A DNA stretch of 52,416 nt from a virus (lineage: Duplodnaviria > Heunggongvirae > Uroviricota > Caudoviricetes): IMG/VR virus record IMGVR_UViG_2896589216_000005; one strand, given 5' to 3'. Each line of letters starts with the position of its first letter. The stretch's first letter is position 1. Positions 1-52,183 of the stretch are shown in pieces. The position numbers and the translations under genes are program-made. The notes under the pieces are model-generated. The model saw only the letters and a program-made list of their open reading frames with translations. It did no database searches and was not told the DNA's origin.

Positions 1-1131
1 TCAAATGACCAGTTTTTTCCATTCCTTACCGCGTGCGTCGTTGTAAATATCGGTCATTTTTTGATTCGAATGGCCTAGCAAAATTTTGGTATCAACCCCC
101 TGCTCTCTGAACAATCGCTCTGATAAAGATCTCTGCTCATGGAAAGAGGGAGGGGTGCCATTAGCACGCCAGTTGTAATCCACAGAATCCCGGGCTTTTT
201 TAAATGCAACGGTTAATGTTGCTGGCTTAACCATCCCGCCGCGCTTAGCTGTCCCTTTCGCGTGATGGTGGTGCAATAGCCACGGACTAAGAACGCAATC
301 GCGGCAGGATGACACCACATCATCCAGGGTGAGATTTAATTTATCGCAACGCAGAGCCAGAGGGATGGCAATCCGGGTTCCTGTTTTTTGCTGTTCGACA
401 TGAAGATAACCATCCCGGATATCCGAAAATTGCATTTTGCAAATATCTGAAAGGCGCTGGCCTGTCATCAGTGCCAGCAGCATACCGCGCTGTAAAAAGT
501 AACCATCCTTTTCCGCTGCGTTATAAATCATCATCCACTCATCAAAAGTCAGTCGCTGTCTTGATATCCGCACCTGCGGTTTTTTTGCCGATTCTGCAGG
601 GTTAAAGCCTGGCGGGACATCGCCCGTTTGCTGAGCTTCCCGGAAAACATCGATCAGTACTTTCCTGAAAATTTGTCCCATTCTGTTATGTCCTCTGGCC
701 TTGTACTCTTCCAGTACTGATACCACATCTTTTACGGTTATGACATCTAACGGTCTGGTGCCAAAACGTTCATCAAATACCCTGAGAGGGGCCGCTTTCT
801 GTTTCAGCGTGTTGAGTTTGATCTCGCCGTTTTCATATCTTTCCTGTTGAATTTTTCTGTAATTATTCAGAAAAATGGTAACGGTTGATGAACCGCCGGT
901 ATCACTAATAATTTTCTCCTGCAGACTGCGCATTTGTTCCATTTGCTGCCGGGCAAGACGGCTGTTCGCTTCTGCTGCAATAGTTTCTGCCAGTTTCTGG
1001 TCAATACTGCCGAGACCGTGATTTTTGCCTGTTATGGGATGCCTGTAACGCCAGTAAACTTTGTTATTTCTTTTATCAAAATACGGAGATAATCCCGGAA
1101 CATCGGTTTTATATTTTCGCGGGCGCGCCAT
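1..1131 (-). CDS. int: Phage integrase (tyrosine recombinase), 376 aa
   Basis: Six-frame ORF; lambdoid integrase-like sequence, followed on the same strand by an excisionase-like ORF; sits at prophage left end. Confidence 0.88.
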   Translation of the reverse strand: MARPRKYKTDVPGLSPYFDKRNNKVYWRYRHPITGKNHGLGSIDQKLAETIAAEANSRLARQQMEQMRSLQEKIISDTGGSSTVTIFLNNYRKIQQERYENGEIKLNTLKQKAAPLRVFDERFGTRPLDVITVKDVVSVLEEYKARGHNRMGQIFRKVLIDVFREAQQTGDVPPGFNPAESAKKPQVRISRQRLTFDEWMMIYNAAEKDGYFLQRGMLLALMTGQRLSDICKMQFSDIRDGYLHVEQQKTGTRIAIPLALRCDKLNLTLDDVVSSCRDCVLSPWLLHHHHAKGTAKRGGMVKPATLTVAFKKARDSVDYNWRANGTPPSFHEQRSLSERLFREQGVDTKILLGHSNQKMTDIYNDARGKEWKKLVI

Positions 1132-1421: not shown

Positions 1422-3896
1422 TTAAAAATCAGCCTGATTCGGGATCAGTTTTTGCCAGATAACTGAAACGTATTTTGCCTGGTAACGGGCGTCATCAAGT
1501 GCATTATGGCGCTCACCTTCGAATGGAATAGCCGTTCTGGCATCGAAGTCTATGGCTTTCCCCAGCTCAACGATTGTGCGTACATCGCGATCGTTGTAGT
1601 AACGCCACGGGCAGGGGATCCCCTGCCGTTCGTATGAACGGCGCAAAATCGTGTTGTCGAAGTTGGCTCCATTTCCCCAGACCTGAACAAAAAATTCACC
1701 GGAGTTTTCGTCGATAAATTCCCGCAATTGTAACAGTGCATCATCTAACGGGATTTCATCGGTCATAATGGCAGATTGCGCTTCGCGTGATTGCTTAAGC
1801 CACCATTTAATGGTGTCCCGATCAATGACCCCGCCAGCAGTTTCCAGATCGATAGTCTTACTAAATTCCGGTCCCATATCTCCGGTTTGCGGATCGAAAA
1901 ATATTGCACCTATTGAGATGATCGGGGCATCAGGATTTTTTCCCATGGTTTCAAGGTCGATCATTAGATGGTCACACGTCCTGCTGGTGGATGTGATTTC
2001 TTGATGACCGTTCACCTTAATTGAGTGATCTGCCGTCTCGCCAGTTTCATTATCGCTATCGTGATGCTGATTGCCGTCAGTGTTCTCCTTGTGTGGATGT
2101 TCAGCGCCTTCCATTTCCTCCGGATCATCTTCCTGAACTTCAACCTGATACTCTTCATCGAATGTTTCCTGGTATGTTGCGTCGCCCATCACCGCGCCAC
2201 AATCAGGGCAGTTGCCGCCGCCGGTCTGACCGCAGGCGGTGCAGACTTTTTCCACTTCCTGTTGCGCCACTGGTTCAGGCTGTTTCGTTTCTGGCTCGTT
2301 TTGTAACGCATTTGGGCTGTTTTGTTCCGCTTTCTGGCCGTTCTGTTCCGTTTCTTGCTGGTTCTGATTCACTGAATCGCGGGTTTCAATCCCCTTCACC
2401 CATTTCGGATCATTCGGGTCGCTAATCCCTGCAACAAATTCACCACGTGATACAGCAAGCAAATTATTGGCGTCAGGCTGGCTGATATTGGCTGCCTGCA
2501 TAATTTTGTTTACTTCGTCAGCGGTAACTTTTACCGGCTCTGGTTGTGCGATCGTGTCAGATGCACCAGTATTTTGTTGTGAACCTGAGTACGTGCCGTT
2601 TTTACGTGCGAAGTATTCCTCTTTTGTGATTTCCGTAGCTCCCAGGGCCAGTGCTTTTTCCAGACCAGAAAGTTTGTTTGCGCGACCGTATTTTTCGCCG
2701 TCCTTATCGGTGAAAAGGAAGTAGAACGGTCCCTCACGCTCTACAGATGGTTCGTCTTCCACTTCGCATTCGGTTTTTTCGTTGTCCGGCATTGCCGTTT
2801 CCACTGCATCAGTTTCTGGTACTGGTGACGGGAGAGTACCAGCTGTGCCCTGATTTGTTCCTTCGTCATCTTCAAACACGCCCTTGGTAGTCAGGTATTC
2901 AGTGATGTATTTGTTCAGTGCTACGGGATCTTTGTGAATGTCGATCGGACGCTCACGGACAAGGCCAAAAATAGTCTGACGGTCGTAGCGAACGGCATCG
3001 GGTTGTTTGCGCATTGATGCGGAAATGCGCTTCCAGTCTTCGCGATCTTTGTCGATAACTTCATTTTTTGCCCAGCGATGGATGCTGCCGTCAATGTTTC
3101 CGGTATCAATATCGCCAGGCCAGAGAGCGTAGGCCAGTTCTTCATCCAGCGTTTTCCATGTCTGCTTGTATTCGCGACAAATGGCGGCAGTGACTGGGTT
3201 GATTTTTCCTGCTGAGTTTTCAGTGTTCTGTTGATTGACTCTGGCGCTGGCGAGATCAACAACAGACGTGTATTTTCCAGTCTCTTTGCGCTCTGCGTCC
3301 TGCCGTTTTTTCCAGTTACGTAATTCAGCCTGAATTTCGGGCCATTTGGCACCCGGATTACATTTGTGTTTAACCCATCCGATAGCGAACAGTTTGCGTT
3401 CCGGATACATAGCGTTAATTTCAGGCGTTTTCATCAGTGCTTCAACGATATGCCCGTCAAAGGTAGCAACGTCTTCCTGCAGTAATTCCTGCGCGTCAAT
3501 CGCCATATCAACGGTGATGTTTTCACATGTACCGAACTTAACCAGGACCGCGTTCTGTACTTCAAGGGACAGCTTGTCAAAATTGACGTTCATCGGATCG
3601 GATTCTGGTTCGACCGGAATAAAGGAAGCGGATTCCTCATCCCAGCGGTTTTCCTGCATATATTCAGCATCCCAGGAATCGAGGGCAGGGCGGGGTATAC
3701 CGGGTTTATCCTCGCAGACAAGAAATTTATAAGCGCAGTCCTGAGCAGCCGGATAATGTTCCAGGAATTGCCAGTGAAATTTTGCGCGGGCGCGACGTTC
3801 ATCACCGGCTTCAATGGCAGTGGCTACAGCGACGGCACCTTCTTCCTTTATTGCCTGTTCGTCCGGAATGGCGGCGCAAATAAAGACTTTACTCAT
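1422..3896 (-). CDS. Large exonuclease-family protein: C-terminal DEDDh (DnaQ-like) 3-5 exonuclease domain, central CxxC...CxxC zinc ribbon, acidic linker
   Basis: 824-aa ORF; C-terminal MIDLETMG...HNALDDARY motifs typical of DnaQ-like exonucleases; occupies the recombination-module position next to xis. Confidence 0.7.
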   Translation of the reverse strand: MSKVFICAAIPDEQAIKEEGAVAVATAIEAGDERRARAKFHWQFLEHYPAAQDCAYKFLVCEDKPGIPRPALDSWDAEYMQENRWDEESASFIPVEPESDPMNVNFDKLSLEVQNAVLVKFGTCENITVDMAIDAQELLQEDVATFDGHIVEALMKTPEINAMYPERKLFAIGWVKHKCNPGAKWPEIQAELRNWKKRQDAERKETGKYTSVVDLASARVNQQNTENSAGKINPVTAAICREYKQTWKTLDEELAYALWPGDIDTGNIDGSIHRWAKNEVIDKDREDWKRISASMRKQPDAVRYDRQTIFGLVRERPIDIHKDPVALNKYITEYLTTKGVFEDDEGTNQGTAGTLPSPVPETDAVETAMPDNEKTECEVEDEPSVEREGPFYFLFTDKDGEKYGRANKLSGLEKALALGATEITKEEYFARKNGTYSGSQQNTGASDTIAQPEPVKVTADEVNKIMQAANISQPDANNLLAVSRGEFVAGISDPNDPKWVKGIETRDSVNQNQQETEQNGQKAEQNSPNALQNEPETKQPEPVAQQEVEKVCTACGQTGGGNCPDCGAVMGDATYQETFDEEYQVEVQEDDPEEMEGAEHPHKENTDGNQHHDSDNETGETADHSIKVNGHQEITSTSRTCDHLMIDLETMGKNPDAPIISIGAIFFDPQTGDMGPEFSKTIDLETAGGVIDRDTIKWWLKQSREAQSAIMTDEIPLDDALLQLREFIDENSGEFFVQVWGNGANFDNTILRRSYERQGIPCPWRYYNDRDVRTIVELGKAIDFDARTAIPFEGERHNALDDARYQAKYVSVIWQKLIPNQADF

Positions 3897-3991: not shown

Positions 3992-4180
3992 TTATCCAGC
4001 CGGTATTTCGTTATTCAGGTTCAGCGATACTTTTTTTAACGGGAGGCATTCACCGGGGATTTTTTGTTCGTCCCTTACCTGAATGCAGGATGACTTACTG
4101 TCATAAATTCCGGTAATCACATTTTGTGGCTCACCCGTTATAAGAAAAACGGTCATCACCAGTGCAAATGCTGAAGTCAC
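3992..4180 (-). CDS. Small protein with hydrophobic N-terminus downstream of dicB (YdfD-like by position), 62 aa
   Basis: ORF whose GTG start overlaps the dicB stop (GTGA); position matches ydfD of the Qin dicB operon. Confidence 0.45.
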   Translation of the reverse strand: MTSAFALVMTVFLITGEPQNVITGIYDSKSSCIQVRDEQKIPGECLPLKKVSLNLNNEIPAG

Positions 4181-4344
4181 TGCTGTTCTCCGATAATACC
4201 AAGTTCAAGAAGGGCAATTCTGGAAAGTATGGAATTATCATTGAGAAGATAAGGTTCATATTTTCTCATCTTAATGGCATCTTCCGTAAACTCCCGGTTA
4301 CTGAGCAGAACACCAATATCAAAACAACCGGTAATGACTCCAAC

Positions 4345-4722
4345 TTATTGATAGTGTTTTATGTTCAGATAATGCCCGATGACTTTGTCATGCAGCTCCA
4401 CCGATTTTGAGAACGACAGCGACTTCCGTCCCAGCCGTGCCAGGTGCTGCCTCAGATTCAGGTTATGCCGCTCAATTCGCTGCGTATATCGCTTGCTGAT
4501 TACGTGCAGCTTTCCCTTCAGGCGGGATTCATACAGTGGCCAGCCATCCGTCATCCATATCACCACGTCAAAGGGTGACAGCAAGCTCATAAGACGCCCC
4601 AGCGTCGCCATAGTGCGTTCACCGAATACGTGCGCAACAACCGTCTTCCGGAGCCTGTCATACGCGTAAAACAGCCAGCGCTGGCGCGATTTAGCCCCGA
4701 CGTATCCCCACTGTTCGTCCAT
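4345..4722 (-). CDS. insB: IS1 InsB (transposase frame, normally expressed as InsAB fusion by -1 frameshift)
   Basis: 125-aa ORF matching IS1 InsB. Confidence 0.9.
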
Positions 4723-4766
4723 TTCCGCGCAGACGATGACGTCACTGCCCGGCTGTATACGCGAGG

Positions 4767-5042
4767 TTACCGACTGCGGCCTGAGTTTTTTAAGTGACGT
4801 AAAATCGTGTTGAGGCTAACGCCCATAATGCGTGCAGTTGCCCGGCATCCAACGCCATTCATGGCCATATCAATAATTTTCTGGTGCGTACCGGGTTGAG
4901 AAGCGGTGTAAGTGAACTGCAGTTGCCATGTTTTACGGCAGTGAGAGCAGAGATAGCGCTGATGTCCGGCAGTGCTTTTGCCGTTACGCACCACCCCGTC
5001 AGTAGCTGAACAGGAGGGACAGCTGATAGAAACAGAAGCCAC
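4767..5042 (-). CDS. insA: IS1 InsA
   Basis: 91-aa ORF matching IS1 InsA (zinc-finger N-terminus CPSC...CSHC). Confidence 0.92.
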
Positions 5043-5315
5043 TGGAGCACCTCAAAAACACCATCATACACTAAATCAGTAAGTTGGCAGCATCACCAAA
5101 CAACCTTCAGACGTATTAACGTTTGGTAATAACGTTTCCATTATCGCGTCCTCAACAATGAATTTTGTGATGCGGTGCCTGGTGCCTCCAGGTGACGTTA
5201 ACCAGTTAACAATTAACGCCGGATACAGAGAATCCACCCATAACACTGTTTTTGGTTTTAACTGTTCTGCGTGCGCTCAGCCGCATTCACCACATCACAA
5301 AATTCACTTTAAAAA

Positions 5316-5368
5316 GGGCGGCAGAGCAGTCACGGAGTAAAACTGATACCGCCAAACGTCACCAGAAA
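5316..5368 (-). ncRNA. dicF: DicF small regulatory RNA (53 nt) followed by U-tract
   Basis: Reverse complement of 5316-5368 reads UUUCUGGUGACGUUUGGCGGUAUCAGUUUUACUCCGUGACUGCUCUGCCGCCC followed by UUUUU, matching the DicF sequence as recalled. Confidence 0.88.
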
Positions 5369-6401: not shown

Positions 6402-6809
6402 TTACTGATGTTTGTTACGTTTGCGAGCTTCTAGTAGCTCGGTGAATAGGCGATTAAAATTCTCAACGCGGGCACGGAGTTCGCTGATTTGTGCTTGCTG
6501 CTCTGATTTTGGAAGTGCGCGATACAATCGCAACATCTCCAACTCATCTTCCGATAAGTCTAAGGCGCTGTTGAGTGCTACTGGTGGATCTGGTGTTTTA
6601 TCCTCGTCACCAAACAGTATCCAAGTTGGTGAACATTGCAATACCTCAGCCAGGCGATGCAAATTTTGCCCGCGCGGGGCTGTATGGTCGCTTTCCCATA
6701 GTGAAATTGATGAGCCAGATACGCCAGCGGCTTTGCTTAAATCGTTTTGACTTAAACCAACCTGTTTGCGTCTTTCTCTAATTCGTTGACCTAAAGTTTT
6801 CTCGTTCAT
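6402..6809 (-). CDS. dicA: DicA-like HTH repressor (XRE family), 135 aa
   Basis: N-terminal HTH (QRIRERRKQVGLSQNDLSKAAGVS) and LQCSPTWILFGDEDK segment match DicA; divergent from a Cro-like gene. Confidence 0.85.
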   Translation of the reverse strand: MNEKTLGQRIRERRKQVGLSQNDLSKAAGVSGSSISLWESDHTAPRGQNLHRLAEVLQCSPTWILFGDEDKTPDPPVALNSALDLSEDELEMLRLYRALPKSEQQAQISELRARVENFNRLFTELLEARKRNKHQ

Positions 6810-13094: not shown

Positions 13095-13293
13095 CGACTT
13101 TTACCAGAGAGCAGTTAATAGCTCACGCAGAGGAGACTATTGAAGCACAGAGACTGTGCATACCGGGCACAATCGACCATGACATCATCCGCACATATAA
13201 GATAGACTGGCCCCCTGAATCTCCAGACAACCAGTATCACTTAAATAAGTGATAGTCTTAATACTAGTTTTTAGACTAGTCATTGGAGTACAG

Positions 13294-13659
13294 ATGATTG
13301 ATGTCTTAGGGCCGGAGAAACGCAGACGGCGTACCACACAGGAAAAGATCGCAATTGTTCAGCAGAGCTTTGAACCGGGGATGACGGTCTCCCTCGTTGC
13401 CCGGCAACATGGTGTAGCAGCCAGCCAGTTATTTCTCTGGCGTAAGCAATACCAGGAAGGAAGTCTTACTGCTGTGGCCGCCGGAGAACAGGTTGTTCCT
13501 GCCTCTGAACTTGCTGCCGCCATGAAGCAGATTAAAGAACTCCAGCGCCTGCTCGGCAAGAAAACGATGGAAAATGAACTCCTCAAAGAAGCCGTTGAAT
13601 ATGGACGGGCAAAAAAGTGGATAGCGCACGCGCCCTTATTGCCCGGGGATGGGGAGTAA
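13294..13659 (+). CDS. insC: IS2 InsC (orfA)
   Basis: 121-aa ORF from [14 protein letters not shown]6G slippery site before stop. Confidence 0.9.
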
Positions 13660-14522
13660 GCTTAGTCAGCCGTTGTCTCCGGGTGTCGCGTGCGCAGTTG
13701 CACGTCATTCTCAGACGAACCGATGACTGGATGGATGGCCGCCGCAGTCGTCACACTGATGATACGGATGTGCTTCTCCGTATACACCATGTTATCGGAG
13801 AGCTGCCCACGTATGGTTATCGTCGGGTATGGGCGCTGCTTCGCAGACAGGCAGAACTTGATGGTATGCCTGCGATCAATGCCAAACGTGTTTACCGGAT
13901 CATGCGCCAGAATGCGCTGTTGCTTGAGCGAAAACCTGCTGTACCACCATCGAAACGGGCACATACAGGCAGAGTGGCCGTGAAAGAAAGCAATCAGCGA
14001 TGGTGCTCTGACGGGTTCGAGTTCTGCTGTGATAACGGAGAGAGACTGCGTGTCACGTTCGCGCTGGACTGCTGTGATCGTGAGGCACTGCACTGGGCGG
14101 TGACTACCGGCGGCTTCAACAGTGAAACAGTACAGGACGTCATGCTGGGAGCGGTGGAACGCCGCTTCGGCAACGATCTTCCGTCGTCTCCAGTGGAGTG
14201 GCTGACGGATAATGGTTCATGCTACCGGGCTAATGAAACACGCCAGTTCGCCCGGATGTTGGGACTTGAACCGAAGAACACGGCGGTGCGGAGTCCGGAG
14301 AGTAACGGAATAGCAGAGAGCTTCGTGAAAACGATAAAGCGTGACTACATCAGTATCATGCCCAAACCAGACGGGTTAACGGCAGCAAAGAACCTTGCAG
14401 AGGCGTTCGAGCATTATAACGAATGGCATCCGCATAGTGCGCTGGGTTATCGCTCGCCACGGGAATATCTGCGGCAGCGGGCTTGTAATGGGTTAAGTGA
14501 TAACAGATGTCTGGAAATATAG
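13617..14522 (+). CDS. insD: IS2 InsD (orfB transposase, DDE)
   Basis: 301-aa ORF in the -1 frame relative to insC. Confidence 0.9.
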
Positions 14523-14766
14523 GGGCAAATCCAAAGATGGATATTGCTGTTCTGGAAATCGCACTGGTATCGCTGGCAGCAGAGCCAGCCGGTAAATTGC
14601 ATGAATACAAACCAGTGGGATATCAGCGTCTGGTCGATGAGTTAACCATGCTGGTAAAGCAGTTAACCTGGCAACTGAGGAAAGCGAAGCCAGACTGCAA
14701 ATTACCGGATAAGGCGATGAGTTATCTGGAGCGGAACGGACTGATAAGCGTGGAGGATATTTTACG

Positions 14767-14850: not shown

Positions 14851-15061
14851 AAACGGTTTGCGGGAAAAGGAGAGTTAAGTAGAATTGCAGCGGGTGCTTG
14901 AGGCTATCTGTCTCAGGCATGAACACCAAAAGGCAGATAGAGAAAAGCCCCAGTTAACATTACGCGTCCGGCAAGACGCTTAACATTAATCTGAGGCCAT
15001 ATCTATGCTCTACACACGTAGGTTAGCCTCTTACGTGCCGAAAGGCAAGGAGAAGCAGGCT

Positions 15062-15217
15062 ATGAAGCAGCAAAAGGCGATGCTAATCGCCCTGATCGTC
15101 ATCTGTTTAACCGTCATTGTGACGGCACTGGTAACGAGGAAAGACCTCTGCGAGGTACGAATCCGAACCGGCCAGACGGAGGTCGCTGTCTTCACAGCTT
15201 ACGAACCTGAGGAGTAA
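15062..15217 (+). CDS. hok: Hok/Gef-family membrane toxin (51 aa)
   Basis: MKQQKAMLIALIVICLTVIVTALVTRKDLCEVRIRTGQTEVAVFTAYEPEE matches the Hok family signature (closest recalled member HokD/RelF). Confidence 0.8.
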   Translation: MKQQKAMLIALIVICLTVIVTALVTRKDLCEVRIRTGQTEVAVFTAYEPEE

Positions 15218-19956: not shown

Positions 19957-20032
19957 GGCCCTTTAGCTCAGTGGTGAGAGCGAGCGACTCATAATCGCCA
20001 GGTCGCTGGTTCAAATCCAGCAAGGGCCACCA
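19957..20032 (+). tRNA. ileZ: tRNA-Ile2 (anticodon CAU, lysidine type; ileZ-like)
   Basis: 76-nt cloverleaf by hand folding; anticodon loop CUCAUAA; near-identical to recalled ileX; encodes 3-prime CCA. Confidence 0.85.
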
Positions 20033-20039
20033 TCACATA

Positions 20040-20116
20040 CCGCCATTAGCTCATCGGGATAGAGCGCCAGCCTTCGAAGCTGGTTGCGCGGGGTTCGAGT
20101 TCTCGATGGCGGTCCA
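20040..20116 (+). tRNA. argO: tRNA-Arg (anticodon UCG)
   Basis: 77-nt cloverleaf by hand folding; anticodon loop CUUCGAA; T-loop TTCGAGT; encodes CCA. Confidence 0.78.
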
Positions 20117-20373: not shown

Positions 20374-20570
20374 ATTGTCTGGCTGCCGGAGAATTTGTTA
20401 AAAATTACATCGCATGGTGAATCCCCCTCAGCGGCGGGGCATCTGGCAAAGTGTATGATCCAGAGAACATGCAAATTCAGTAGACAGGCTGAATTTACCG
20501 GGAGGCACCTGGCACCATGCGACAGACAGAAATTAGGCTATACTTCAGCCCCTCTCCGGAGGGGCTTTTC
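20374..20570 (+). repeat. Structured direct-repeat unit A (about 200 bp) ending in an 8-bp GC hairpin plus T-run
   Basis: Shares conserved blocks with unit B; terminal hairpin AGCCCCTC-TCCG-GAGGGGCT followed by TTTTCT. Confidence 0.5.
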
Positions 20571-20842
20571 TGTGCAGGATGTGTCACAGTTTCCTGAATT
20601 CTGAGTACTGTCCTGTTACTCAGGGTGCTATATTTTCTGACGTGATGAAAGTCTGCCGGAAGGCGGAACGTATCGGAAATGACCCAGTAGAGAAAACGTT
20701 GACTCAGATACCGATGCTGAGTTACCGGGAAACCGGCATCACATGACCGCTATCCTTCCAGGCTCGCTCCGGCGGGCCTTTTTACTGCAGAAAACAGTTT
20801 TCCCGTAAAATGCTACGTTGCTCATAATTCAGGCTGGCGATT

Positions 20843-21035
20843 ATTGTCTGGCCAGCGGGAAGTTTGTTAAAAAATTTCGCATGGTGAATCCCCCTGTGCG
20901 GAGGGGCAATCAGCGAGTAGGTATATGGGATAATCGCGGATTCAGGTGCTGGTACTGAATTCACCGGGAGGCACCCGGCACCATGCAATGGCACATAGCG
21001 CCACTCTCCAGCCCCTCTCCGGAGGGGCTGTTTAT
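20843..21035 (+). repeat. Structured direct-repeat unit B
   Basis: Same block order as unit A, 469 bp downstream; identical terminal hairpin. Confidence 0.5.
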
Positions 21036-21064
21036 ATTGATTTTGTCAGATGTGAGTAAACTCC

Positions 21065-23516: not shown

Positions 23517-23662
23517 AAAGTGAGCCAGTCAAATGGAAGGTATCGTTAAACTCACCGGTAGTGTCAGTGGGTAGACTGGCCCCCTGAATCTCCAGACAAC
23601 CAGTATCACTTAAATAAGTGATAGTCTTAATACTAGTTTTTAGACTAGTCATTGGAGTACAG

Positions 23663-24094
23663 ATGATTGATGTCTTAGGGCCGGAGAAACGCAGACGGCG
23701 TACCACACAGGAAAAGATCGCAATTGTTCAGCAGAGCTTTGAACCGGGGATGACGGTCTCCCTCGTTGCCCGGCAACATGGTGTAGCAGCCAGGCAGTTA
23801 TTTCTCTGGCGTAAGCAATACCAGGAAGGAAGTCTTACTGCTGTGGCCGCCGGAGAACAGGTTGTTCCTGCCTCTGAACTTGCTGCCGCCATGAAGCAGA
23901 TTAAAGAACTCCAGCGCCTGCTCGGCAAGAAAACGATGGAAAATGAACTCCTCAAAGAAGCCGTTGAATATGGACGGGCAAAAAAGTGGATAGCGCACGC
24001 GCCCTTATTGCCGGGGATGGGGAGTAAGCTTAGTCAGCCGTTGTCTCCGGGTGTCGCGTGCGCAGTTGCACGTCATTCTCAGACGAACCGATGA
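23663..24094 (+). CDS. insC: IS2 orfA (InsC) of copy 2, C-terminally altered
   Basis: ORF extended to 143 aa by the 1-bp deletion; S-to-R substitution relative to copy 1. Confidence 0.7.
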
Positions 24095-24890
24095 CTGGAT
24101 GGATGGCCGCCGCAGTCGTCACACTGATGATACGGATGTGCTTCTCCGTATACACCATGTTATCGGAGAGCTGCCCACGTATGGTTATCGTCGGGTATGG
24201 GCGCTGCTTCGCAGACAGGCAGAACTTGATGGTATGCCTGCGATCAATGCCAAACGTGTTTACCGGATCATGCGCCAGAATGCGCTGTTGCTTGAGCGAA
24301 AACCTGCTGTACCACCATCGAAACGGGCACATACAGGCAGAGTGGCCGTGAAAGAAAGCAATCAGCGATGGTGCTCTGACGGGTTCGAGTTCTGCTGTGA
24401 TAACGGAGAGAGACTGCGTGTCACGTTCGCGCTGGACTGCTGTGAGCGTGAGGCACTGCACTGGGCGGTGACTACCGGCGGCTTCAACAGTGAAACAGTA
24501 CAGGACGTCATGCTGGGAGCGGTGGAACGCCGCTTCGGCAACGATCTTCCGTCGTCTCCAGTGGAGTGGCTGACGGATAATGGTTCATGCTACCGGGCTA
24601 ATGAAACACGCCAGTTCGCCCGGATGTTGGGACTTGAACCGAAGAACACGGCGGTGCGGAGTCCGGAGAGTAACGGAATAGCAGAGAGCTTCGTGAAAAC
24701 GATAAAGCGTGACTACATCAGTATCATGCCCAAACCAGACGGGTTAACGGCAGCAAAGAACCTTGCAGAGGCGTTCGAGCATTATAACGAATGGCATCCG
24801 CATAGTGCGCTGGGTTATCGCTCGCCACGGGAATATCTGCGGCAGCGGGCTTGTAATGGGTTAAGTGATAACAGATGTCTGGAAATATAG
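24051..24890 (+). CDS. insD: IS2 orfB (InsD) of copy 2, N-terminally truncated (279 aa)
   Basis: Lacks the first 22 codons present in copy 1; D-to-E substitution. Confidence 0.7.
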
Positions 24891-25001
24891 GGGCAAATCC
24901 AGTGGGTCGTCTGAGATGCCTGCATGAGTTATCAGAGCCATCAGTACTTAACTGGTGGCTTTTTTTATTGTTGTCAGCTTCCGGATAACGGGAGACGGGG
25001 T

Positions 25002-38062: not shown

Positions 38063-40525
38063 TCTTGTTATTGACCTGAGTCTGGATGCTGTCCGTTTCG
38101 ATGAGCAGATGAGCCGGGTAAGGCGTCATTTTTCATGTCTGGATACCGACGCCAGAAAAACCGCCAGTGCTGTTGAACAGGGCCTGAGCCGCCAGGCGCT
38201 GGCTGCACAAAAAGCCGGGATTTCCGTCGGGCAGTATAAAGCGGCCATGCGAACCCTGCCCGCACAGTTTACGGATATCGCCACGCAGCTTGCAGGTGGT
38301 CAGAATCCCTGGCTGATCCTGCTGCAACAGGGCGGTCAGGTGAAGGACTCCTTCGGCGGGATGATCCCCATGTTCAGGGGGCTTGCCGGTGCGATCACCC
38401 TGCCGATGGTCGGGGTCACCTCGCTGGCGGTGGCGACAGGTGCGCTGGTGTACGCCTGGTACCAGGGAGATTCCACGCTTTCAGCGTTTAATAAAACCCT
38501 GGTTCTTTCCGGTAATCAGTCCGGACTGACTGCCGATCGTATGCTGACTCTCTCAAGAGCCGGGCAGGCAGCAGGGCTGACGTTTAACCAGGCGAGAGAG
38601 TCACTGGCAGCCCTGGTGAATGCCGGTGTGCGTGGTGGTGAACAGTTTGATGCCATCAACCAGAGTGTCGCGCGTTTTGCGTCTGCATCCGGTGTGGAGG
38701 TGGATAAAGTCGCTGAAGCCTTCGGGAAGCTGACCACTGACCCGACGTCGGGACTGATGGCGATGGCGCGCCAGTTCCGTAACGTGACGGCAGAGCAGAT
38801 TGCGTATGTTGCACAGCTGCAGCGTTCCGGAGACGAGGCCGGGGCATTGCAGGCGGCGAACGATATCGCCACGAAAGGCTTTGATGAGCAGACCCGTCGC
38901 CTGAAAGAAAACATGGGAACACTGGAGACCTGGGCGGATAAAACAGGGAAGGCATTCAAATCGATGTGGGATGCCATTCTGGATATCGGTCGTCCTGAAT
39001 CCTCAGCGGATATGCTCGCCAGTGCGCAGAAGGCATTTGATGAGGCGGATAAAAAATGGCAGTGGTACCAGAGCCGGAGCCAGCGCCGGGGAAAGACCTC
39101 CTCTTTTCGTGCGAACCTTCAGGGGGCATGGGATGACCGGGAAAATGCCCGTCTGGGTCTGGCAGCGGCCACGCTGCAGTCGGATATGGAAAAAGCCGGT
39201 GAACTGGCGGCAAGGGACCGGGCTGAGCGTGAGGCGTCACAGCTGAAGTATACCGGAGAGGCGCAGAAGGCGTATGAGCGCCTGCAGACGCCGCTGGATA
39301 AATATACCGCCCGTCAGAAAGAGCTGAATAAGGCCCTGAAAGACGGAAAAATCCTGCAGGCGGATTACAACACGCTGATGGCGTCGGCAAAAAAGGATTA
39401 TGAATCGACGCTGAAAAAGCCGTCAGGTGTGAAGGTGTCTGCCGGTGAGCGCCAGGAAGACCGGGCGCATGCAGCCATGCTGGCGCTTGAAACCGAGCTC
39501 AGGACGCTGGAAAAACACAGCGGTGTGAATGAGAAAATCAGCCAGCAGCGCCGGGATTTATGGGAAGCGGAAAATCAGTATGTGGTCCTGAAAGAGGCCG
39601 CCACGAAACGGCAGTTATCTGAGCAGGAAAAATCCCTGCTGGCCCATGAGAAAGAAACGCTGGAGTACAAACGCCAGCTGGCTGAGCTGGGCGACAAGAT
39701 TGAACACCAGAAACGGCTGAATGAGCTGGCACAGCAGGCGGCGCGGTTTGAACAGCAGCAGAGCGCGAAGCAGGCGGCAATCAGCGCAAAAGCACGCGGA
39801 CTCACCGACCGTCAGGCGCAGCGGGAGTCGGAAGAGCAGCGCCTTCGTGAGGTGTACGGTGATAATCCGGCTGGGGCGAGTGGGCGGAAAGTGCGACGGA
39901 CAGTTTTTCGCAGGTTAAAAACGCGGCCACGCAGACCTTTGACGGTATTGTACAGAATATGGCAGCGATGCTGACCGGCAGCGAACAGAACTGGCGTGGT
40001 TTCACCCGTTCTGTGCTGTCCATGCTGACAGAGATTTTTCTGAAGCAGGCGATGGTGGGGATAGTCGGGAGTATCGGCAGCGCCATTGGCGGGGCTGTTG
40101 GTGGCGGCGCATCCGCGTCAGGCGGTACAGCCATTCAGGCTGCGGCGGCGAACTTCCATTTCGCGACCGGGGGATTTACGGGGACGGGGGGTAAATATGA
40201 ACCTGCGGGGATTGTTCATCGCGGGGAGTTTGTCTTCACGAAGGAGGCGACCAGCCGGATTGGCGTGGGAAATCTTTACCGGCTGATGCGCGGCTATGCC
40301 ACCGGCGGTTATGTCGGTGGCACCGGAAGTCCGGCGCAAATGCGGCGTTCAGAGGGTATCAGATTTGAGCAGAACAACAACGTGGTGATTCAGAACGACG
40401 GTACGAATGGTCTGCCAGGTCCACAGATGCTGAAGGCAGTGTATGACATGGCCCGCAAGGGTGCCCGTGATGAAATTCAGGCACAGATGCGCGATGGTGG
40501 TCTGTTCTCCGGAGGTGGACGATGA
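38043..40525 (+). pseudogene. H: Tape measure protein H, frameshifted (1-bp deletion in G-run at about 39874)
   Basis: Lambda gpH homology moves from ORF 38043-39974 to the frame of ORF 39959-40525 near CTGGGGCGAG. Confidence 0.85.
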
Positions 40526-50499: not shown

Positions 50500-51083
50500 T
50501 GGCATTCAGAATGAGTGAACAAGCACGGACCATAAAAATTTATAATCTGCTGGCCGGAACTAATGAATTTATTGGTGAAGGTGACGCATATATTCCGCCT
50601 CATACAGGTCTGCCAGCAAACAGTACCGATATTGCACCACCAGATATTCCTGCTGGCTTTGTGGCTGTTTTCAACAGTGATGAGGCATCGTGGCATCTCG
50701 TTGAAGACCATCGGGGTAAAACGGTTTATGACGTAGCGTCAGGGGACGAGTTATTTATTTCTGAACTCGGTCCGTTACCGGAAAATGTTACCTGGTTATC
50801 GCCGGAAGGGGAGTTTCAGAAGTGGAACGGCACAGCCTGGGTGAAGGATACGGAAGCAGAAAAAATGTTCCGGATCCGGGAGGCGGAAGAAACAAAAAAC
50901 AACCTGATGCAGGTAGCCAGTGAGCATATTGCGCCGCTTCAGGATGCTGCAGATCTGGAAATTGCAACGGAGGAAGAAACCTCATTGCTGGAAGCCTGGA
51001 AAAAGTATCGGGTGTTGCTGAACCGTGTTGATACATCAACTGCACCTGATATTGAGTGGCCTACGAACCCTGTCAGGGAGTAA
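50499..51083 (+). CDS. tfa: Tail fiber assembly protein Tfa
   Basis: 194-aa ORF near-identical in pattern to lambda Tfa; start overlaps the stf stop (TAATG). Confidence 0.92.
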
Positions 51084-51097
51084 TCATTGGGATTATG

Positions 51098-51147
51098 CCG
51101 CAGCACGTCTTAAGCAAGAACGTGCTGCGGTTGGATGCTATTTTTTC
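51098..51147. terminator. Bidirectional hairpin between convergent tfa and the methyltransferase gene
   Basis: 11-bp stem CCGCAGCACGT/ACGTGCTGCGG followed by a T-run. Confidence 0.4.
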
Positions 51148-51862: not shown

Positions 51863-52183
51863 ATGCTGCCGCAGCATAGCGATATTGAAATAGCCTGGTA
51901 TGCTTCGATACAGCAGGAGCCGAATGGCTGGAAGACCGCCACCACACAGTTCTACATCCAGGAATTCAGTGAGTATATTGCGCCACTGCAGGATGCTGTA
52001 GATCTGGAAATCGCAACGGAGGAAGAAAGATCGTTGCTGGAGGCATGGAATAAATATCGGGTATTGTTGAATCGTGTTGATACATCAACTGCACCGATAT
52101 TGAGTGGCCTGCAAATCCTGTCAGGGAGTAATCATTGGGATTATGCCGCAGACACGTCGTATGCAGGAACGTGCTGCGGTTAG
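51863..52183 (+). pseudogene. Second, partial tfa-like 3-prime copy with a 1-bp deletion
   Basis: About 210 bp near-identical to the tfa 3-prime end ([37 protein letters not shown]); GCACCGATATT versus GCACCTGATATT shifts the frame. Confidence 0.6.

Follow-up and report, generated by a model that had tools for sequence, protein, structure and literature searches.

An IS1SD insertion in dicB, beside an intact dicF, in a Shigella prophage adjoining ompW

A lambdoid prophage integrated adjoining ompW carries a dicBF-type operon whose dicB gene is interrupted by an insertion sequence. Is this interruption a genuine transposition, what does it leave of DicB and of the small RNA DicF, and was the loss of dicB selected or is it one lesion among others? 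An earlier note on this DNA had proposed a complete IS1 with an 8-bp target duplication inside dicB, an untouched DicF upstream and, as a consequence, the removal of a prophage-borne toxicity. We examined these proposals in the window, i.e. the whole stretch of 52,416 nucleotides that was analysed, and in the genomes that share the locus.

The insertion and its target site

The element within dicB is indeed a complete IS1, 768 bp long, with terminal inverted repeats and with InsA and DDE_Tnp_IS1 domains. Members of the IS1 family are recognized by a length of about 768 bp and imperfect, approximately 23-bp terminal inverted repeats (GGTGATGCTGCCAACTTACTGAT / GGTAATGACTCCAACTTATTGAT), as well as by insA, a −1-frame insB' and an A6C slippery motif; all of these are present. 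The termini read GGTAATGACTCC... from 4330 and ...GGCAGCATCACC up to 5097. Their first 23 positions match at 18, IRL being the terminus at 5097 and IRR that at 4330. The frameshift motif, AAAAAAC, is found at nt 307 of the element (window 4785-4791). The element is the single IS1 copy of the 52-kb window and is transcribed co-directionally with dicB. Its subtype is IS1SD: it is 99.7-99.9% identical to copies annotated as such on S. dysenteriae and S. boydii plasmids, and its closest matches are all on Shigella plasmids.

With classical IS1 insertions it shares the 768-bp length, the type of inverted repeats, the insA/insB' frames with their A6C motif, a short duplication and a target that is comparatively rich in AT (GC content 41% within ±50 nt, 52% in the whole window). 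It departs from them in the size of the duplication, usually 9 bp and here 8 bp.

Table 1. Coordinates of the dicBF locus and of neighbouring genes in the window.
Feature	Position	Strand	Remarks
int	1-1131		last gene of the operon, after xis
YdfE-like 3'-5' exonuclease	1422..3896	-	824 aa; PF16473 226.6 bits; leftward operon, downstream
YdfD-like DUF1482 gene	3992..4180	-	PF07358 56.4 bits (cutoff 25), which assigns it to YdfD/DUF1482
dicB 3' fragment	4177..4329	-	codons 13-62 + stop
Target-site duplication AAACAACC, promoter-distal copy	4322..4329		exact 8-bp direct repeat
IS1 (IS1SD)	4330-5097	-	complete, exactly 768 bp
insB' frame	4345..4791	-	open from A6C motif to stop; DDE_Tnp_IS1 262 bits, positions 1-131/131
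insA	4767..5042	-	91 aa, intact; Pfam Zn_ribbon_InsA + HTH_Tnp_IS1; NCBIfam IS1 family
dicB 5' fragment	5098..5141	-	44 nt = codons 1-14 + 2 nt
Target-site duplication AAACAACC, promoter-proximal copy	5098..5105		exact 8-bp direct repeat
DicF sRNA gene	5316..5368	-	intact; the dicB ATG lies 174 nt downstream
DicA-like HTH repressor	6402..6809	-	135 aa, intact; HTH_3 and related Pfam; position as K-12 dicA

The flanking repeat AAACAACC comprises 8 bp, and the identity stops short of 9 bp. This octamer occurs four times on the plus strand and twice on the minus strand of the window, and the chance of an 8-mer match abutting both IS ends exactly is about 1 in 65,000. We reconstructed the ancestral locus by deleting IS1 and one copy of the repeat from the window sequence. 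The reconstruction is found uninterrupted in five E. coli genomes, at 99.7-99.9% identity over 1225 nt; in E. coli EC931 only 1 of the 1225 nt differs, and AAACAACC is single-copy. An IS1-family element is expected to be flanked by an 8-9 bp direct duplication that is single-copy in the unoccupied site, and this is what we observe: the 8-mers of the earlier note are a true target duplication, exact at both IS ends and single in the empty sites.

Five other IS1 insertions compared, three in E. coli dicBF operons and two of IS1SD on an S. boydii plasmid, all have a 9-bp duplication. We rejected the idea that 8 bp is specific to IS1SD, since the latter two are both of the intact-flank IS1SD copies of that plasmid. 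The 8-bp duplication is a minority outcome and not a property of the subtype. Eight-base-pair duplications are known as such a minority outcome, within the range of IS1; our literature search on 8- versus 9-bp IS1 duplications returned nothing relevant.

Occupied and empty versions of the locus were collected with the 824-aa exonuclease (exact match) as a handle. Four assemblies with an occupied site (CP026807, CP026823, CP026825 and AKNG01000031) share an identical IS and both identical 60-nt junctions; one contig starts 7 nt within the junction. In five assemblies whose prophage at ompW is 99.9% identical the site is empty, and there the alignment blocks overlap by exactly 8 nt. A 52-aa junction ORF is recorded in at least 22 public contigs of Shigella dysenteriae/boydii-type strains, six of them chromosome-scale. 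The exact dicB/IS1 junction gave no match in a scan of the GTDB species-representative genomes and was found in none of the complete E. coli genomes in RefSeq. Twenty seemingly full-length E. coli matches were rejected as three-piece joins, with IS1 elsewhere in the operon.

Could the arrangement have arisen otherwise than by transposition? Shigella genomes contain many copies of IS1, and IS copies are frequent points of breakage or false joining in assemblies; one might have been misplaced into dicB in this way. However, the junctions are identical in assemblies that comprise a draft of 2012 and three chromosomes finished independently. At least three short-read draft contigs, moreover, terminate 74-337 nt into IS1 at this exact junction, as expected of short-read assemblies, which break at repeats. 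The precise 8-bp duplication, single-copy in empty sites, is a signature of transposition and not of misjoining. With this evidence a misassembly is extremely improbable. We give next to no credence either to a rearrangement in which recombination between two IS1 copies would have joined the dicB halves to one IS1. Such events are common in Shigella, and several IS1 copies of the S. boydii plasmid are without target duplications; in dicB, however, the empty site aligns base for base with the two flanks, which have the 8-bp duplication in common, and on either side the genes of the operon follow the order seen in K-12 and in the PPompW prophages of E. coli.

The remnants of dicB and the dicF gene

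The dicB gene lies on the minus strand, with its ATG at 5141 and its stop at 4177-4179. Once IS1 and one repeat are removed, a 62-aa ORF is restored, in agreement with the earlier note, and the alignment it had proposed as a check gives a full-length match to Pfam PF05358 DicB (129.5 bits, cutoff 27; positions 1-62/62). The restored protein is identical to WP_000449172.1, annotated as DicB in EC931, and likewise (100%) to the protein that the PPompW prophages carry as 'cell division inhibition protein'; its identity to K-12 DicB is 61%. Besides the full-length Pfam match, its context is that of DicB: it lies downstream of dicF and overlaps a ydfD-like gene, and a DicA-type repressor is present. 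MinC-dependent inhibition of division by DicB is established for the K-12 allele only (PMC6832061, PMC4967827).

That the frame is split holds, with a small correction to the position. The break occurs after nt 44, inside codon 15 and not behind it: the repeat spans codons 13-14 and ends 2 nt into codon 15, hence the slight error. From the ATG, the 5' fragment reads into IRL and encodes 21 residues, METLLPNVNTSEGC-LVMLPTY, of which 14 are from DicB and 7 are IS-derived, before a stop at 5076-5078. In the 3' fragment, a search for ATG, GTG or TTG starts found none ahead of Met33 (4269). In some public annotations this fragment appears as an ORF of 52 aa that begins at ATT and matches PF05358; a 56-aa chimeric ORF at 5076-5246 has no record as a called gene.

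How much function might these pieces retain? Constructs of K-12 DicB from dN2 to dN26, with N26 only, or from dC12 to dC20 are all non-lethal, and truncated K-12 proteins retained some residual activity (PMC4967827). By these truncation data, transferred to an allele that is only 61% identical, both leftover fragments are predicted to be non-lethal and neither should be fully active. We infer that dicB is a null allele here.

The DicF gene is untouched, as had been proposed. Rfam RF00039 matches at 76.7 bits (gathering score 48) over its full length (model positions 1-52/52; 5316-5367, minus strand), and all 53 nt are identical to dicF (b1574) of K-12 MG1655, where the spacing to dicB is also 174 nt. 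Between the 3' end of DicF and IS1 lie 218 nt, and the DicF sequence is the same in occupied-site and empty-site loci. In K-12, the 5' end of DicF is generated by RNase E cleavage and the 3' end by intrinsic termination, which gives the 53-nt form, or by RNase III processing (PMC5069750). As the sequence, terminator and upstream region are unchanged, and the determinants of both ends lie upstream of IS1, DicF should still be made.

Operon layout and expected polarity

In the direction of transcription, the operon consists of a DicA-like gene, a DUF1391/YdfA-like gene, a hypothetical gene, dicF, dicB, the DUF1482/YdfD-like gene, the YdfE-like exonuclease, xis and int. It thus resembles the dicBF region of K-12 Qin (dicA / ydfABC-dicF-dicB-ydfD-ydfE) in gene order, in DicF, in the 174-nt spacing, in a 4-nt overlap between dicB and ydfD, and in the exonuclease-xis-int end. 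Qin is likewise damaged by insertion sequences, with IS2 in ydfE/intQ. In contrast to Qin, the prophage studied here is located at ompW, its DicB is only 61% identical, a hypothetical gene of 124-128 aa replaces ydfB and ydfC, and the IS lies within dicB itself.

The GTG start of the YdfD-like gene overlaps the dicB stop (GTGA), an overlap of 4 nt that is annotated in EC931 and K-12 too. Translation of the YdfD-like gene is probably coupled to that of dicB through this stop/start overlap. IS1 insertions are classically polar. In a derepressed operon, the YdfD-like gene, the exonuclease, xis and int would be transcribed and translated less, both through IS1 polarity and because ribosomes translating dicB would no longer reach the overlap. 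The only promoter-like prediction is the element's own promoter at IRL (5090..5063); a search by promoter prediction for a hybrid outward promoter at the IRR / dicB-3' junction returned none. Since IS1 is co-directional with the operon, weak read-through from its promoter may reach the dicB 3' fragment and the YdfD-like gene. The expected polarity, loss of coupling and continued production of DicF are extrapolated from K-12 and from classical IS1 genetics.

Lineage, decay and the question of selection

Among the known systems that come closest to this prophage are the PPompW prophages of E. coli (LC5678xx). They have the ompW site in common and a left arm, int-xis-exonuclease-DUF1482-dicB, that is 98.4% identical, with DicB at 100%. 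In contrast, their dicB is intact, and most of the sequence differs in the replication, late and tail regions, which are mosaic. Among GTDB species-representative genomes, a DicB search found E. albertii only.

The insertion is present in the drafts of MINT and MINV, ST148 Shigella strains with an S. dysenteriae-like O antigen that are classified as S. boydii by k-mer (PMC5674244). From consecutive accessions, CP026807 is most likely the chromosome of S. dysenteriae 204/96, as CP026809 is its plasmid unnamed2. Over 4.6 kb of chromosomal flank, the occupied-site strains are mutually identical save for two 1-nt gaps in CP026823, and the empty-site strains (GCA_013933425, GCA_049894525 and others) lie 2-4 SNPs away from them in about 4.5 kb. 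With empty-site relatives this close, the insertion postdates the acquisition of the prophage and marks one sub-lineage: it is a derived, lineage-specific trait of Shigella dysenteriae/boydii type. In the chromosomal flank, gene calls vary among these Shigella assemblies. A yciI-like gene is called with 98 or 130 aa (loci L006-L013, about 13640-14031), and a kch-like gene with 232, 318 or 417 aa (L010, L011 and L013, from about 14330 onward), which hints at pseudogenes or assembly indels beside the prophage.

The window contains other lesions. Two IS2 copies, at 13203-14533 (1331 bp) and 23572-24901 (1330 bp), are in direct orientation and 99.8% identical to each other. The second has a 5-bp duplication, GTGGG; at the first, no more than 4 bp match (AAGA). 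If the two copies recombined, some 10 kb could be lost, the Q antiterminator and the tRNA region among them. Both the head maturation protease and the tail tape measure protein are split, each over two overlapping frames (31867-33338 and 38043-40525), and the portal ORF (30286-31668) matches its profile over part of the length only; these split head and tail genes may reflect a defective prophage or assembly errors and indels.

Further features were recorded along the window. An Rfam match to the sok antitoxin RNA (14892-15067, 117 bits) implies that the prophage contains a hok/sok (gef-like) toxin-antitoxin module, such as is annotated in PPompW. The Q antiterminator gene is followed downstream by two tRNA genes (19957-20113) and then by a tandem pair of STnc100 sRNAs (20382-21039; 140 and 133 bits). 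This is the position at which Stx phages carry stx; no toxin genes were seen there. In the tail-fibre assembly region, Rfam IS009 matches at 50842-51040 (224 bits), and repeats of about 225 nt (50907-51132 and 51956-52181; 86-95% identity) lie 1049 nt apart, an arrangement that suggests the ends of a duplicated or invertible cassette.

Why, then, is IS1 in dicB? The transposition itself is shown: in a Shigella lineage, an IS1SD element entered dicB at codon 15, in the leftward early operon of the prophage, and generated the 8-bp target duplication. In the reading that we favour, with a probability of roughly 85%, the event was neutral or nearly so, and the insertion would belong with the other IS hits of a decaying prophage in an IS-rich genome rather than represent a selected detoxification. 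The intact repressor, the other lesions and a sister lineage that keeps dicB make decay the most economical reading.

The contrary proposal, that loss of dicB was adaptive, is unlikely. Selection would have favoured loss of the division arrest and ManYZ inhibition due to DicB, together with polar loss of a YdfD-like lysis function, while DicF was kept. In its favour, DicB and DicF are toxic on expression and DicB blocks sugar uptake by ManYZ (PMC6832061); the insertion is found in at least 22 contigs of one lineage. IS1 has also entered E. coli dicBF operons independently at three other places, in one orientation, severing dicF-dicB from the promoter. These copies (L002, 2789-3556; L003, 3032-3799; L004, 2909-3676) occur in LR-06, JBEHAAB-19-0176, strain 54214 and about 19 similar genomes, all with a 9-bp duplication and oriented as here. 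However, all three lie upstream of dicF-dicB, the LR-06 copy just upstream of the DicF 5' end, and leave dicB intact, so that dicF is not spared. Their recurrence could be due to chance or to recurrent silencing: with about 10 IS1 copies per genome and thousands of genomes, a few insertions into a 2.5-kb operon are expected by chance on a rough estimate. We do not claim dicBF as an IS1 hotspot, since that chance expectation is not small despite four independent sites in one orientation. Against adaptation also stand the intact repressor, by which the operon should normally be silent, the closely related lineage that kept dicB, and the two IS2 copies and other lesions, which point to general decay.

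In K-12, moreover, DicB offsets the lysis induced by YdfD (PMC8835842); loss of dicB alone would not be a simple detoxification if the ydfD-like gene is still expressed. The removal of a prophage-borne toxicity is therefore plausible but goes beyond the evidence, given the intact repressor, the YdfD offset, the other lesions and the sisters that keep dicB. Selection against DicB is possible but unsupported. A more specific variant we regard as doubtful: that IS1 was selected for uncoupling DicF from DicB directly, and from the YdfD-like protein by polarity, with the recurrent dicBF insertions answering to the same pressure. If true, it would leave an sRNA-only DicF module, available for host or virulence regulation.

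The finding is correct and amounts to a routine insertion of an IS in a known gene beside a known sRNA, visible in public annotations; it reveals no new mechanism and has little import beyond annotation. The locus is best labelled a dicB pseudogene (dicB::IS1SD) with dicF intact. As a marker, the insertion by its presence or absence cleanly tells a Shigella dysenteriae/boydii (ST148-type) lineage apart from close relatives with the same ompW prophage. It also provides a natural dicB-null, dicF-positive allele, which could help to separate the effects of DicF from those of DicB in a pathogen background.
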